IMG/VR virus record: IMGVR_UViG_3300006147_000007 | Reading direction: 5' to 3' (one strand) | DNA from: a virus | Lineage: Duplodnaviria > Heunggongvirae > Uroviricota > Caudoviricetes | Length of the DNA: 22,130 bases | Part shown: positions 6,657-18,018 of the stretch, one piece after another | Numbering within the stretch: position 1 is the stretch's first letter | How the letters are laid out: each line of letters begins with the position of its first letter | Position numbers and translations under genes: made by a program | Notes under the pieces: generated by a model | What the model was told of the DNA's origin: nothing | Databases searched by the model: none | The model's input: the letters and a program-made list of their open reading frames with translations, nothing else

Positions 6657-7496
6657 CTATTTCGCTATTCTGTATTTATATGCTATTTTTCTCTTTCGTT
6701 CACGCTCTTTTATTTTTGCACATTTTTCACAATATAATCGTTTGTTTCCAGTTTTTTCTATTATTGCACCACATTGTTTACAACGAGAATATTTTTTATG
6801 ATCTCTAATTCCGTAATATTTTTTTTGCCATTTTAAAATTTCCCCTTCTAAACTTTTGCATATATATCCAACATAAAAGTTGTCTTCAGTAAGAAAATTT
6901 AACACAGTAACAATTTTCGTTTTATCTTCGTATTCTCCTATGAGTTTACAATTATCAAAACATCTTCTTAAAAATTCCTCAATGATTTTCTTATATTCAT
7001 TCCAAGATAAAGACATTTTTTCTTTTTGCAACTTCACTTTTACTTTTTCAGCTTTATCTATTGCATCATCTATAAGTTCTGTGACGGTATCAGCATTCAT
7101 ATCAATTCCGGAAATCCATTGATAATATAATTTCTTTGAAGTTTTTAACAAATCCATATATTCTTTTCCTAAAACAACTTCTTTATCAAAGTATCTAGTA
7201 TATATATTATTTATCTTCTGTCTAATAATTGATTGCCAATTTTCTTCCTTAGTCATTGATTTATAGTATGTATACTCAATATCTGACCAAGTATCAAAAA
7301 CTTGTCCAATTTCTGTTTGCAATAAATCTTTCCTAACATTAAATCTTATTGACTTTTTATATATTCTCCGTTTATTATCTGAAGACCAGATAGAAGAGCA
7401 GAACGATTTAAAAATCTCGTCCTTTTCTTCTTCTTTTTTTGATTCTTTGTAGTCTTCTATGATTTCATACAAAAATAAATCATCACATTTGTATAT
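6657..7496 (-). CDS. hypothetical protein with C-terminal Zn finger, translationally coupled to the RNA polymerase
   Basis: CKQC-x13-CEKC followed by a basic helix. Start proposed at ATA 7496 (6 nt after AGGTG); the track's GTG at 7505 has only 2 nt of RBS spacing. Confidence 0.8.
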   Translation of the reverse strand: MYKCDDLFLYEIIEDYKESKKEEEKDEIFKSFCSSIWSSDNKRRIYKKSIRFNVRKDLLQTEIGQVFDTWSDIEYTYYKSMTKEENWQSIIRQKINNIYTRYFDKEVVLGKEYMDLLKTSKKLYYQWISGIDMNADTVTELIDDAIDKAEKVKVKLQKEKMSLSWNEYKKIIEEFLRRCFDNCKLIGEYEDKTKIVTVLNFLTEDNFYVGYICKSLEGEILKWQKKYYGIRDHKKYSRCKQCGAIIEKTGNKRLYCEKCAKIKERERKRKIAYKYRIAK

Positions 7497-8205
7497 AACT
7501 TTCACCTACCTCAAATTCATAATATTTACCAAGATATTCATAAGAATCATTGGTTTTATATGGAACCTCTTGTATTGAAACATTTCTTTTAGGATTTGTA
7601 TTATTCCTCAAATTATTAATGATGTAATCACCATAACCAGCCCATGCAAAGGATTTACTGATAGAGATAGAAGAGTATGAAACTTTGATTACATAGTTTG
7701 CAATCAATTCTTCATCTATTTGTACTTCATCTAATATACGTTTTCTGTATTCTTCAACAACGACATCCATATTAAATTTGTAACTCTCATCATTTGATTT
7801 TTCTCTATGTAGGTTTATATGCATTCTAATTTCGTCAGCATACTGATTTACATATCTTCTACACACCTTCATTATTTTTTTGTTAGATAAGTCCAGATCA
7901 TTATTGATAATCAAGCATCTGGTATCAACCAAGTTATTTACATTATTATCCCAAATGATATTCTTCTTTTCCCACGTACAAATATAATCGCACAATTCAT
8001 TCATAGGAGAGGGAGAGTGATAAGCATTTAACTTTATTTTTTCCTCTTTATTCTCTATCTGCTTATTTTTTTCATTTAAAGTTTTGTATGTTTTAAGTTT
8101 TGAAGGATAGTTATAAAGTAAAAAATATGGTAGCTGCTTTAAGTGCTTTCTCAATCCACTGTTCATTTGCCAACGAAATCCCGTTTTAAGAAAATCAATT
8201 TCTTT
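7483..8205 (-). CDS. yonO: YonO-like RNA polymerase, exon 2 (240 aa)
   Basis: Open frame extends upstream of the track's Met to KEIDFLKTGFRWQM, starting right after the intron's terminal G and completing the FQG|KEID..KTG motif. Confidence 0.85.
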   Translation of the reverse strand, partial: KEIDFLKTGFRWQMNSGLRKHLKQLPYFLLYNYPSKLKTYKTLNEKNKQIENKEEKIKLNAYHSPSPMNELCDYICTWEKKNIIWDNNVNNLVDTRCLIINNDLDLSNKKIMKVCRRYVNQYADEIRMHINLHREKSNDESYKFNMDVVVEEYRKRILDEVQIDEELIANYVIKVSYSSISISKSFAWAGYGDYIINNLRNNTNPKRNVSIQEVPYKTNDSYEYLGKYYEFEVGESYIQM

Positions 8206-8365
8206 CCTTTATACCCTCGGTTTCCCGATATTTATTAGGGGAGTAGACCATATCTTCATCCTATTAGGATGTGCAGCACTTCCAAATAAGGAATTTCACC
8301 TTAAATGTACTTCCTTGCGGAATGGTCGTTGTACCTTTCTCTGTTAGAGACTTGGCACAGGATTG

Positions 8366-9157
8366 TCATATTGCCTTTAATTTTTTATCTTCTAAGAATT
8401 GATCCCAACCTTCAGGTCTTACATGTTTCCATCTTCGATCACTCATAATTCCAGAATAAATATATTTATATGGAATTTTGTATTTTTCTGAAATATCACT
8501 AACACTAATTCCATTAATCATATCAATTTTAACTTTTTCAATTATTTCTTCTGTATATTTTGCTGTTTTCTGCTTACTTCCTTGATTTGCTATTCTACAT
8601 TTTTCTCTATGCTCTTTTGAAATTGGTTTACCTTTTTTAGATTCACTTAAATGTTTTCTATGCTCTTCAGTTTTAACATAACCCTTATGAGACTCTGATA
8701 TAAGTTTTTTAGTCTCTTCGCTATGCCTTTTACCTAGCATATTTATTCTATTTTTCTCACCGATTTTCCTTTTTGATTCATCTGACAGTGGAACCATTTT
8801 ACACTTCTCTCCACCAGTTGTTAGATTAAAACCGTTTTCAAAAGTGTTAAATTCTTTAATATATTTTTGTTCTAACTTGTCTAATGTTTCTTTTGTTATA
8901 TTTTCTTTCTGTATTAACTCAAAACTTTCTATTGGATAAAATTTAAAATTTTCCTCACCATATTTATTCCAAGCATTTTGAAGATAAGTATTTGAATGAT
9001 GATTATTTTTTAAATTCCATTTATGAAATATCCATCTTCTATAAAAGTTTTCATATGTCTGTCCAATATACTTTGTTTTTGTCTTTGTACATTCAATACA
9101 ATATATACCATAGTGCTGACGTTGATATTTAATATCTGTAAAATTTATATCTTGCAT
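8366..9157 (-). CDS. intron-encoded GIY-YIG homing endonuclease with NUMOD3-like repeats
   Basis: YGIYCIEC...KYIGQT motif, ETLDKLEQKYI, repeats KRHSEETKKLISESHKG and EEHRKHLSESKKG. Start set to ATG 9157 after GAGGAGGA. Confidence 0.93.
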   Translation of the reverse strand: MQDINFTDIKYQRQHYGIYCIECTKTKTKYIGQTYENFYRRWIFHKWNLKNNHHSNTYLQNAWNKYGEENFKFYPIESFELIQKENITKETLDKLEQKYIKEFNTFENGFNLTTGGEKCKMVPLSDESKRKIGEKNRINMLGKRHSEETKKLISESHKGYVKTEEHRKHLSESKKGKPISKEHREKCRIANQGSKQKTAKYTEEIIEKVKIDMINGISVSDISEKYKIPYKYIYSGIMSDRRWKHVRPEGWDQFLEDKKLKAI

Positions 9158-9176
9158 TAAATTCCTCCTCATAATT

Positions 9177-9253
9177 ATTATACAATAGTTGGTATCAACT
9201 TGTCAACAACTAATTGATATCAACTTGACAACAACTTGTGATAATGCTAAAAT
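9177..9253. promoter_or_regulatory. back-to-back promoters with two 23-bp operator-like repeats inside the intron
   Basis: Minus: TTGACA (9206-9201), 18 nt, TATAAT (9182-9177). Plus: TTGACA (9225-9230), 17 nt, TAAAAT (9248-9253). Repeats GTTGGTATCAACTTGTCAACAAC (9188-9210) and ATTGATATCAACTTGACAACAAC (9213-9235), 20/23 identical. Confidence 0.85.
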
Positions 9254-9275
9254 CGTTATCAAGGAGGTGAGATAA

Positions 9276-9434
9276 ATGCCAGCAGGTAAAGTAGCACCAC
9301 ATAATACTCGTACTAATATAACAATTTCAAAAGAACTAAAAGCTAAACTAGAAGAGTTAGCAAAACAACAAAACAGAAGTTTTAATAATTTAGTTATTTC
9401 AATTCTTAAAGATTATGTTGATAACACTCATTAA
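9276..9434 (+). CDS. 52-aa ribbon-helix-helix (Arc/CopG-like) regulator, antisense within the intron
   Basis: RBS AAGGAGGTGA; MPAGKVAPHNTRTNITISKELKAKLEELAKQQNRSFNNLVISILKDYVDNTH*: beta-strand TNITIS, helix, RSFNNLV helix. Not in the ORF track. Confidence 0.88.
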   Translation: MPAGKVAPHNTRTNITISKELKAKLEELAKQQNRSFNNLVISILKDYVDNTH

Positions 9435-9451
9435 AATGGGTGTTATTTTTT
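9421..9451 (+). terminator. intrinsic terminator of RHH transcript
   Basis: ATAACACTCAT-TAAA-ATGGGTGTTAT 11-bp stem followed by a T-run. Confidence 0.75.
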
Positions 9452-9588
9452 GGCAACTTAGATTTTCCCTGTTAGCCAGATTATTAATTGTCATTTCCTA
9501 CAACTACTAAGCGTTAATCTGACACCATAGATTTCTATGTTCACTGCATTTGCTTATATACATTACTGTATATAGGGGCTAATATTTA

Positions 9589-11496
9589 ACCCTGAAAAAT
9601 TCTAAGCAACGACGAATAATTTGAATATAATTCTTTTATATCCTCATTAGTTGTATATCTGTTTTCGATGCTTGTTGCTACGTTTGTTATCTCACCGATC
9701 CGGTTATCCCTAGTCATAACTTCATACTCTATGATATTTTCTTTGGTGTATGGTTTTGATTGAGCTGTGACCTTATCCTCTACATCAAGAATAATATGTT
9801 TATCAATTTTAGAATCAATAACTATAGGTTCATCACACAATAAGAAAATGTCTCCATCGCAGTCGGCTCCACCCTGTTGTGGAAGAGATACATCATACAT
9901 ATTAAACATTACAACATCTTGGTCTTTGAAACAGTCAAACCATCTACTGATAATATCATTCTTGGTAATTTTAACTTTGTTTACCTCTGATGGATCTACC
10001 AATGGTGAACGAAGAGAAATAATATCACCACAATCAAAATTACCACTATATATTTCTCTTTCACCCAAGCAACCAACAGGTTCTTCGCCAACTGCATATT
10101 GTAAATATCCAATCATGTCACCGACACCAACATGATAAAAACCTGAGCAATAAATTTTTCCGACTTTTGCTTCGTCAATAGATTTCTTAAGTTTTCGATA
10201 TATAAACTGCTTTACAGCCGGATCTTTCAGCATGACATCATTGATTAAAGCAGCTTCAAGATATTTACTCTCTGGCTCGTATCCATCGGTATCCATGATA
10301 CCCATGAACTTATAAGTGTAAAACTTATCCCCTTTTATTATCTTTTCAAATAGAGCAGTAGTATATTTCGCTAAAGTTATAATTTTCCCATCATTATTAC
10401 TGTCAAGAATATCATAGTTACTTACAGATTTATTTTCATAAGCGTCAATGTATTTTTGATTCCATAGATCCAAACATTGTAAATATTGAAAATTCATTCT
10501 GGTATATTTGTTTAGGTATTTTACGTGATGACTATATTTACTGATCCCAAGTTTGAATTCATATTTCCTAACGGTATTCATATATTCAGTCCAAGCATTA
10601 TCACCGTACTTTTCTTTAAAAATTTTGTGTCCTTTAAACATAGAAATATTCCAAATACAATCAATCATGCTGATAGGGTGCTTTGTACCATAAATATCTG
10701 TAATGTATTCATATCCCCATTCTTTAAGTATCTGCCTAAATGGAACATAAACAGAATATCCCTTAATAAATGGTAAACGAACTTGAGTTCCAATTACATT
10801 ATAATCAAGTCCTAGTTGTGCACTGACATTTTCCATAAAACCATGTTCATGACAGCCGCATCCATCAAAAGGGGAAATTTTCAAATCCTTATATCCCTCT
10901 TCAATTTCTCTTGACTTATACTTTTTTGTTTTGCCAGTCTCTTTATCTACAAATTCCTTTTCTCTTTCAACAACATACTTGATTAGCTGATTTTGCAAAG
11001 TCTTTTCATATTCTCCAATAATTACAATATTTGGCATATAGTCTTTAATCAGAATACAGGAACTAAAAGGTAAACATCTTTGAGCTTCGTACTTTGAAAT
11101 TACACATTTGTCAATTTTAATATCCATTTGTGTAACTATATATAACTCATCAAAAATTGAATCACAAACAAAAGCAGTAATACCATCTTTGCCTTGTGAA
11201 GCAGATTTACCAAAACGCGAATAATGAATACCATTATATATGAAACCAACATCAAGTATATGTCTCAGATATTCTTCCTGTTTAGGATTTTTCTTTGCAA
11301 CCACCAGTAAAATTTCTTTGATATGTGATGAAAAATGTCCACGAAGTCTTTCAATCTGATCAAATAATGGGCAGTTCCCCTGAGCAATCAGAAATTCTTT
11401 TTCGATTTCTGTGGTTCTATCTATGTTTACGTTATAGCTTTGGCGGATAATTTCCTTAATTGGAAGTTTAACTAGCGTATACTGTGTATTATTGAT
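9589..11496 (-). CDS. yonO: YonO-like single-subunit (cellular RdRP-like, two-barrel) RNA polymerase, exon 1 (636 aa)
   Basis: Motifs SPFDG, TQVRLPFIKG, LRSP, catalytic GADCDGD. The frame is open to 11502, 66 codons upstream of the track's GTG. Start proposed at ATC 11496 after GGAGGTGA. Spliced product 876 aa. Confidence 0.88.
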
Positions 11497-17172: not shown

Positions 17173-18018
17173 TTACTTCTCCAAATCATTTTCAATTTTT
17201 GCAGCTAATTCATCAAATTTATTTCTACTCTTATTACAATCAGTACCATCAGCCATATGTAACTTCTCCATAATAGAATCCAGTGTTAATGTAAACATAT
17301 CTCTGATATCTCTGTAATGATTGATTACATCAAGTACTTCTACTTTAATATCTGAGTCTATACAAAATTCACATCTATACAGATCTGTATATTCATTGGT
17401 TTCAATGTTATAAGTATCTTCTGTTTCTACGATAACGAGATGTATTATATTAGGTAATGATAATTTCTCATCTGAGTTATCATTTACATAAGATAGAAGA
17501 GTATTAAGTTTCCTAAATGTATTACTTTTCCAGCGTGAATATTTCTTTAGTGGTAATTTCTTCTTATTGGACTGATCTTCTAACTTGGATAACCGGATAT
17601 CCATAGAGGTTAGTAATTCTATTAATTTTTCATTGACTTCATTATTAGGATTAGATTGTAATCTCTTCGTAGCTGCTTTTAGTCCTTGCTCACATGCGAT
17701 GAAATATTTACGTGCTTCTTGTCCACGTTCATTTTTCACTGTCATAGATAACTGCTTTGCAAAATCTGACGTAAGTTTATAATCTGTCGTAAGTCTACCG
17801 CCAATTTTGGGGTTTTCACTCTCAAAGCGAAAAGGTATATAATCAATTCCTTCAGTAGCAAAAGGGTTATTTAATATATTTCGTTTACACCATGCAGAAT
17901 AATGGCTGAGATTTAAACCTAAAAATTCATATAAATTTCTTAGTGTTGTCATTCCGTTCTCATCAATTTTCAATGCAATTTCTATCGGTGTCTGAGATAA
18001 TGTATCGGTTTTAGTCAT
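17173..18018 (-). CDS. AntA/AntB-family phage antirepressor
   Basis: TTLRNLYEFLGL..Y..WC..NI..N.FA.EG.DY and DYKLTSDFAKQLSM...GQEARKYFIACE. True start uncertain. Confidence 0.85.
   Translation of the reverse strand: MTKTDTLSQTPIEIALKIDENGMTTLRNLYEFLGLNLSHYSAWCKRNILNNPFATEGIDYIPFRFESENPKIGGRLTTDYKLTSDFAKQLSMTVKNERGQEARKYFIACEQGLKAATKRLQSNPNNEVNEKLIELLTSMDIRLSKLEDQSNKKKLPLKKYSRWKSNTFRKLNTLLSYVNDNSDEKLSLPNIIHLVIVETEDTYNIETNEYTDLYRCEFCIDSDIKVEVLDVINHYRDIRDMFTLTLDSIMEKLHMADGTDCNKSRNKFDELAAKIENDLEK

Follow-up and report, generated by a model that had tools for sequence, protein, structure and literature searches.

An Arc cassette related to those of IS605 elements in the P5 loop of an endonuclease-bearing group I intron of a phage yonO-like gene

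The locus

The DNA considered here, called the window throughout, is a stretch of 22,130 nt from the IMG/VR virus record IMGVR_UViG_3300006147_000007 (Caudoviricetes). On its minus strand, a gene for a YonO-like single-subunit RNA polymerase is split by a group I intron of 1383 nt (8206..9588, minus strand), which consists of a 307-nt core and a 1076-nt insertion in the loop of P5 (8376..9451). Between the P5 arms lie a gene for a GIY-YIG homing endonuclease, a bidirectional promoter with operators, a gene for a 52-aa ribbon-helix-helix (RHH) protein of the Arc type (arc) on the opposite strand and a terminator. Arc probably represses the endonuclease promoter, as related proteins do in IS605 elements.

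The polymerase gene comprises two open reading frames (ORFs). The 572-codon upstream ORF (11304..9586, minus strand) matches the Pfam family RdRP (PF05183) at 2.8e-11 and the YonO-like family PHROG 8308 at 3.7e-49, and the gene is carried on by a second ORF at 8166..7483 (minus strand). The two are separated by a minus-strand GIY-YIG/NUMOD3 ORF and a plus-strand RHH ORF of 52 codons. A tblastn search with exon 2 against the phage collection yielded no match; a search of a large protein collection retrieved hundreds of uninterrupted homologs of 811-889 aa, to whose C-terminal part exon 2 is ~90% identical over its full length. The intronless homologs P0122, P0126 and P0237 read ...SSLLRIFQG|KEIDFLKTGFRW across the predicted junction. 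Therefore, exon 1 (9589..11304, minus strand) ends at 9589 (GGU) with the same ...LLRIFQG as the intronless homologs, exon 2 (7483..8205, minus strand) begins at 8205 with KEIDFLKTGFRW, and the intron occupies 9588..8206.

Boundaries and fold of the intron

The Rfam model RF00028 (Intron_gpI) matches 8224-8467 (minus strand) with 29.6 bits (E 3.6e-5; gathering score 50), and a scan of the whole window at the Rfam gathering threshold gave no match. A pooled Rfam scan of ten loci by E-value missed even a known intron copy; sequence anchors and a consensus fold of our own were used instead. For this fold, 11 distinct copies were aligned, the big loop was swapped for a tetraloop, and alifold recovered P1, P2, P3, P4, P5, P6, P7.1/7.2, P8 and P9. 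The P7 halves GACCA/UGGUC are found in the intron core as well. At the 5' splice site, GGGU|UAA pairs with UUAGCCC and provides a U.G pair, and the intron ends with ...AAAGG, G8206 being the terminal nucleotide. P2, P3 and P5 contain compensatory differences between the lineage of the window and the intron type of SPbeta-like Bacillus phages, to whose introns the 3' core is ~81% identical between 8207 and 8337.

The 5' core (9452..9588, minus strand) contains P1 (GGGU/GCCC), the P2 hairpin, the 5' strand of P3 (GCAGUG), P4 (ACAGGGA, 9472..9466) and the 5' arm of P5. The 3' core (8206..8375, minus strand) begins with the 3' arm of P5 and continues with the 3' strand of P4, P6, P7, P7.1, P7.2, the 3' strand of P3, P8 and P9 to G8206. 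P5 itself is formed by GUUGCC (9457..9452) and GGCAAU (8375..8370), and its 3' arm coincides with the final endonuclease codons (K-A-I-stop). In relatives, the arms read GUUGC/GCAAU or GCGAU. Judged from junction and fold, the element is a group I intron with a precise junction. No relevant paper on a group I intron in yonO came up in a literature search.

Endonuclease, Arc and the region between their genes

The endonuclease gene (8366..9157, minus strand) encodes 263 aa of an I-TevI-like enzyme. Its product reaches 30.3 bits for Pfam GIY-YIG (cut-off 22.6), 28.3 bits for NUMOD3, a motif of the DNA-binding extension (cut-off 20.4), and 1e-37 for PHROG 314. It can be aligned with the catalytic domain of I-TevI (1MK0, 1LN0) at 4e-5, with GIY, YIG, Arg, His, Glu and Asn retained. 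The likely start codon is the ATG at 9157 behind AGGAGG instead of position 9172 given in the ORF list, because the nuclease promoter is then followed by a strong ribosome binding site (RBS) and an ATG within ~20 nt. The closest relatives are the endonucleases of the Arc-less introns in SPbeta-type yonO genes with 39% identity; a free-standing Arc-linked enzyme is 29% identical.

The arc gene (9276..9434, plus strand) is antisense to the intron. Its 52-aa product matches Pfam RHH_5 with 29.8 bits (4.8e-7, cut-off 26) and PHROG 582, which is designated 'Arc-like repressor'. The predicted structure comprises an extended N-terminus and two helices (19-31 and 36-51) and corresponds to the RHH topology, at a pLDDT (predicted local distance difference test score) of 76. 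The family is large, with 287 homologs of 50-54 aa. The window protein is 60-73% identical to proteins that are encoded divergently from OrfB_IS605/Cas12f-TNB genes, and parts of RAGATH-18 guide RNAs lie downstream of the tnpB genes of this TnpB-linked family. This kinship places the RHH protein in the Arc family encoded beside TnpB.

Both genes have a promoter of their own. The endonuclease promoter (9177..9206, minus strand) is composed of TTGACA, an 18-nt spacer and TATAAT and agrees with the consensus at 12/12 positions. The arc promoter (9225..9253, plus strand) displays TTGACA, a 17-nt spacer and TGcTAAAAT, i.e. 11/12 positions with an extended -10 TG. This back-to-back pair represents the two top-scoring sigma-70-type sites within 8100-9700. 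In a shuffle control, a 12/12 site occurred in 23/3000 sequences and two sites of at least 11/12 in 46/3000. The endonuclease promoter is kept in the relatives. A strong RBS and an ATG are found within ~20 nt downstream of either promoter; in the case of arc, the RBS AAGGAGGTG is located 5 nt ahead of the ATG.

The promoters are embedded in two tandem 25-nt repeats (9186-9210 and 9211-9235) that are 88% identical. Each repeat contains a palindromic operator core followed by a -35 hexamer. The cores are O1 (TTGGTATCAA, 9189-9198), which lies entirely within the spacer of the endonuclease promoter, and O2 (TTGATATCAA, 9214-9223), which directly adjoins the -35 box of the arc promoter. No other exact match to the operator word is found in the 22-kb window. 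The repeats differ at the hexamer centre (TTGTCAA at 9200-9206 versus TTGACAA at 9225-9230). This one-base change flips the -35 box of repeat 1 to the opposite strand and, therefore, a direct duplication gives divergent promoters. An operator-like word, GTTGATAACA, is also present in the arc 3' end and terminator stem (9417-9426), and one-mismatch sites are found in exon 2 (7919-7929) and in the endonuclease 3' end (8399-8409); the number of such words beyond the promoter region is no higher than expected by chance.

Downstream of arc, a hairpin with a T run resembling an intrinsic terminator (9420..9451, plus strand) is located. The hairpin proper (9420-9447) has a 12-bp stem, a predicted energy of -12.5 kcal/mol and a z-score of -3.96. 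The arc stop codon lies in the hairpin loop, and the T run ends at 9451 adjoining the P5 arm. A hairpin and a T run 3' of arc are also found in TnpB-linked and free-standing cassettes.

A preliminary description of this DNA, made from its letters alone, had proposed a group I intron with an insertion between the arms of P5, the 3' arm being formed by the last endonuclease codons, and within the insertion a GIY-YIG gene, an opposite-strand RHH gene of 52 aa, back-to-back near-consensus promoters and a terminator ahead of the ribozyme core. Rfam and the intronless homologs, Pfam, PHROG, the promoter scores and the hairpin bear out all of this. The two repeats with palindromic cores and -35 boxes described there are present, too; their length had to be corrected from 23 bp to 25 nt.

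Conservation of the insertion

The order exon 1, arc, endonuclease and exon 2 is repeated in 14 other metagenome contigs, whose Arc proteins are 79-96% identical to that of the window. Across the 15 copies of this lineage, the P5 insertion is 1085-1093 nt long, and both ORFs are unbroken in all of them. An Arc-less version of the lineage was sought, and arc proved to be carried by 15/15 copies. The ratio of non-synonymous to synonymous differences per site (pN/pS) is 0.13-0.51 for arc (window versus 11 copies) and 0.18-0.34 for the endonuclease gene (window versus 10 copies), and it is below 1 in every pair. Both genes look functional. For the window (8366-9434) paired with the intron copies L004-L010 and L102-L105, pS of the endonuclease gene (~0.5) is more than twice that of arc (~0.2), which suggests mosaic histories or an extra constraint on the arc DNA. 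Intron-plus and intronless alleles of yonO coexist at ~90% identity, and this would fit mobility of the intron.

For comparison, 89 more distant introns with the P4-J4/5 word were collected, in ~60 of which the P5 region could be measured. It comprises either 15-28 nt or several hundred to ~1200 nt. In 24 distant introns it exceeds 500 nt, and most of these have a sense-strand ORF that begins 19-75 nt past J4/5. An Arc homolog was found in 0/89. Therefore, introns of this class commonly have an endonuclease gene in P5, but the ~290-nt arc cassette preceding it is out of the ordinary.

The introns in yonO of the SPbeta-like phages SPbetaL5, BUCT083, Goe11 and Goe14 are the nearest known counterparts. 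They have a homologous core, interrupt the same gene at a comparable place near the 3' third and carry a GIY-YIG/NUMOD3 gene in the same P5 loop, at the 39% identity given above. In contrast to the window, this gene is enclosed by an unrelated 15-bp P5 stem at the same place, and arc, promoter and terminator are absent. Its ORF begins ~40 nt past the P5 arm and must, therefore, be read from the yonO transcript. In the records of SPbetaL5 and BUCT083 (L002:1401-5202 and L003:1402-5217), exon 1, endonuclease and exon 2 are annotated as separate proteins.

Arc cassettes at other loci

Pooled partner loci were compiled from IMG/VR matches and look-ups, and loci with a divergent upstream ORF were counted. 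TnpB was encountered as divergent partner of arc 29 times, a short GIY-YIG protein 30 times and an HNH nuclease in one cluster of 4 and in 2 singletons. The I-TevI-like GIY-YIG cluster (n=8) contains seven copies of the window's own intron lineage and one further IMG/VR locus (L029). Occasionally, the partner is a methylase or another gene. The Arc relatives beside these various nucleases are 55-75% identical to the window Arc. One member with 71% identity is found, divergent from a TnpB gene, at numerous separate places in phage contigs, and TnpB-divergent members are also found in Clostridium phage c-st and elsewhere. Hence, GIY-YIG genes with a divergent RHH gene, for which the preliminary description had suggested a search, exist both in the 15 lineage copies and at free-standing loci. 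An intron was sought around the other Arc-GIY-YIG pairs, L029 and L072, and none was found; as there is also no room between the neighbouring genes, these pairs are free-standing.

The operator word is shared by the family. In 81 distinct regions of 170 nt ahead of arc, TGrTAyCA was counted 132 times, compared to 0.014 times per 170 nt elsewhere in the loci. This is a more than 100-fold enrichment upstream of arc homologs, and the usual place of the word is the spacer of the nuclease promoter. In one arc group, it forms arrays with an 11-nt period. The free-standing short GIY-YIG/arc pairs L072-L101, located on phage contigs of mostly ~40-80 kb nearly all from one sample, carry arrays of three plus two TGATACCA/TGGTATCA words with 11-nt spacing, i.e. 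one per helical turn, a layout unlike the two 25-nt repeats of the window.

When cassettes are aligned, homology extends from the -10 box of the nuclease promoter through both operators and the arc promoter into arc. The promoter-operator DNA of the intron lineage is 83-91% identical to that of one TnpB-linked cassette. Between intron copy L102 and the TnpB-linked locus L022, this segment is 91% identical, whereas the nuclease leaders share 32%. Since the match stops at the nuclease -10 box, it is the cassette and not the nuclease gene that would move: the mobile piece appears to comprise promoters, operators, arc and terminator, with the nuclease gene being exchanged at the -10 box. In sequence, the endonuclease of the window resembles the Arc-less SPbeta type more than the free-standing Arc-linked enzyme, which suggests that the arc cassette joined an endonuclease already resident in the intron. 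The earlier proposal that a two-gene unit had invaded the intron is, thus, to be modified: a mobile promoter-operator-arc-terminator cassette is apparent, but endonuclease genes alone are common in P5, and the nearest relatives of this one are Arc-less.

Several Arc-TnpB units look like IStrons (L201:3157-3620, L202, L203, L204, L205, L206/L207 and L106:4163-4658). A conserved non-coding stretch of 460-560 nt is located 5' of their antisense arc and is 70-86% identical between insertion sites. It holds group I core words (CAACGACUAU ... GAUAUAGUCU), and RAGATH-18 is found downstream of tnpB. RF00028 gave no report on these stretches.

Arc as a putative repressor of the endonuclease

In IS605 elements, Arc binds the bidirectional promoter and represses the tnpB promoter, as demonstrated by chromatin immunoprecipitation sequencing (ChIP-seq), reporters and mutants, with binding and repression established for the homologs from P. 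xylanilyticum and C. botulinum (Moon et al., bioRxiv 10.64898/2026.09.24.754181). Because of this published work, DNA binding and repression are expected of the intron-borne Arc, too. We propose that dimers of Arc sit on O1 and O2, where they would block the endonuclease promoter and probably hold down arc expression as well, and estimate the probability of this reading, drawn by analogy, at about three in four. Of the earlier suggestion that the RHH protein represses both promoters, repression of the nuclease promoter gains support from the Arc family and the same layout here, but autoregulation has only been proposed for the family.

Some points weigh against this proposal. Certain Arc homologs showed no specific binding, and autoregulation in IS605 elements is likewise no more than suggested by the authors (10.64898/2026.09.24.754181). 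Since O2 precedes the arc -35 box without overlapping it, its occupation could leave arc unaffected or even activate it. A simple terminator scan gave no call for the arc hairpin. Finally, the RF00028 score lies under its gathering threshold, since the model cannot span the P5 insertion and forces its 5' half into the endonuclease ORF.

Three other explanations were weighed, all of which are less likely than repression by Arc. Arc might be a bystander, either an immunity-type or general regulator of the phage that merely happens to be located in the intron or the inert remnant of a lost Arc-TnpB element, without any control of the endonuclease. The close kinship of the cassette DNA with TnpB-linked cassettes would agree with a remnant. 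However, O1 is placed within the spacer of the endonuclease promoter and the exact operator words are found nowhere else in the 22 kb, the arrangement is retained in all 15 copies despite 19-21% Arc divergence, and no remnant of tnpB or omega-RNA was detected in the intron, so that we consider a bystander improbable. Alternatively, the cassette could work chiefly through RNA: convergent arc transcription or the antisense RNA would disturb yonO transcription or intron folding, with the late polymerase as the controlled gene and the endonuclease as a secondary matter. Indeed, the arc promoter faces the yonO transcript, and the arc RNA, being antisense to the pre-mRNA, would form base pairs with the P5 loop over ~160 nt. 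Against an RNA-level effect, which we regard as very improbable, speak the conserved terminator that halts arc transcripts right at the P5 arm ahead of the ribozyme core, the occurrence of the same cassette at intergenic sites without an intron and the purifying selection on the Arc protein sequence.

The least probable explanation, to which we give hardly any credence, is that Arc binds the GIY-YIG nuclease directly as an antitoxin-like inhibitor, which would turn the intron cargo into an addiction module resembling a toxin-antitoxin system. RHH proteins are common as type II antitoxins; the best match among sequences of solved structures is the RHH antitoxin EndoAI (4me7, E 0.024), weak Pfam matches to FitA, VapB and HicB were obtained, and an archaeal RHH-TnpB toxin-antitoxin pair has been proposed (PMC10691335). 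Yet, the two genes are divergent rather than arranged in an operon, and Arc with merely 52 aa has no C-terminal tail for toxin binding. Furthermore, the partners of its relatives have unrelated folds (TnpB, two GIY-YIG types, HNH, methylase), and the constant element is the DNA operator. A type II toxin-antitoxin pair in the strict sense was rejected as a classification: the divergent genes have promoters of their own, and the protein is a bare RHH domain.

Proposed timing of endonuclease expression

Expression of intron homing endonucleases is usually attributed to the transcript of the host gene or to phage late promoters. In the window, a group I intron with an endonuclease gene, housed in the YonO-like gene of a temperate gut phage of Lachnospiraceae, would have captured an IS605/TnpB Arc cassette in its P5 loop. 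The cassette would supply the GIY-YIG gene with its own consensus promoter of the host type and, therefore, endonuclease expression would be independent of yonO transcription. Arc dimers on the two TTGrTAyCAA operators would act as a brake by which the nuclease promoter, and probably also the arc promoter, is switched off. The antisense arc transcript would be stopped by the terminator at the edge of the ribozyme core.

The setting is compatible with lysogeny. The window is AT-rich phage DNA that encodes a tyrosine integrase and two Ant-like anti-repressors (three genes at 602-1642, 1677-2480 and 17173-18018) and, in addition, ParB-like nucleases. Because of these genes it is, by its gene content, derived from a temperate phage or prophage. 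An intronless yonO allele is located in a 3.19-Mb Lachnospiraceae chromosome, where it adjoins an HTH_3 repressor gene and a gene for an M78 peptidase (L110). With this allele, the integrase and the Ant-like genes, a lysogenic setting is plausible.

From a host-type promoter that does not depend on yonO, one could expect a short burst of endonuclease upon entry of the phage DNA into an Arc-free cell, followed by silence in the lysogen. This burst is speculative and modelled on P22 Arc. With the inserted promoter silent, exon 2 and the genes behind it would also be spared transcription from there. In a wider and rather doubtful scenario, the Arc cassette is a portable pulse generator that selfish nucleases with unrelated folds (TnpB, GIY-YIG and HNH) trade through recombination at the -10 box. 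Within the intron of the window, it would retime homing: the nuclease would fire on entry into an Arc-free cell, cut intronless yonO of a co-infecting phage or a resident prophage before the lytic/lysogenic decision and then fall silent in the lysogen.

Comparison with known systems

With the Arc cassettes of IS605 elements, the window shares a small RHH gene divergent from a selfish nuclease gene, a bidirectional promoter and motifs on the promoter elements. It differs in the partner, a protein-guided GIY-YIG homing enzyme, and in the absence of tnpA, tnpB and omega-RNA. Moreover, the cassette is located in an intron loop instead of between transposon ends. Homing endonucleases were only listed among the neighbours of Arc in that work (Moon, Zedaveinyte, Wiegand and Sternberg, 10.64898/2026.09.24.754181).

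An Arc-like RHH ORF has been reported within IStrons, and Arc homologs beside TnpB, homing endonucleases and other mobile elements (Zedaveinyte et al., 10.1101/2023.11.20.567912; Science 2024). The preliminary description had regarded a dedicated regulator gene inside an intron as not previously described; in view of this report, that claim is not supported. As in the window, the IStron gene is antisense in a group I intron element and lies between ribozyme sequence and nuclease gene. The cargo of IStrons comes after the complete ribozyme core, is flanked by transposon ends and comprises TnpB with a guide RNA, whereas the cargo of the window splits the core at the P5 loop and encodes a GIY-YIG nuclease, so that its mobility would be classical homing. 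Classification of the window intron as an IStron was rejected, as neither a TnpB/TnpA ORF nor a RAGATH/omega-RNA match was found in 8206-9588 and the cargo is situated in the P5 loop.

Two phage systems are similar in layout or logic. In the immI region of phage P22, the RHH repressor Arc is made early after infection, and the promoters Pant and Pmnt form a divergent pair; a burst is followed by shut-off. In P22 as in the window, an RHH repressor goes with a divergent pair of promoters, one of which is strong and has an operator located between its -35 and -10 boxes, but P22 controls an antirepressor and the window a nuclease, and the likeness is one of layout and not of sequence comparison. 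The td intron of phage T4 encodes I-TevI, which represses its own late promoter. Here, too, a GIY-YIG endonuclease is encoded in an intron and its promoter is repressed by a protein from the same intron, which for the window is a prediction. Unlike I-TevI, the window has a separate, dedicated repressor gene and a promoter of the host type.

Significance

Our literature search revealed no paper describing a conventional endonuclease-bearing intron with an Arc cassette in its P5 loop. What is new is the place of the cassette in such an ordinary intron; the general principle has been published. Since it is already in print, the gain is incremental. A practical consequence concerns annotation: yonO-type polymerase genes split by this intron appear in records as separate hypothetical proteins.

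For the biology of mobile elements, the locus indicates that rival classes of selfish DNA make use of one and the same small regulatory module, which has here been borrowed from RNA-guided transposon nucleases. As far as the intact core and ORFs tell, an Arc module can be housed in a ribozyme loop without destroying the intron. The locus thus provides a natural test case for the timing of selfish nucleases in temperate phages.

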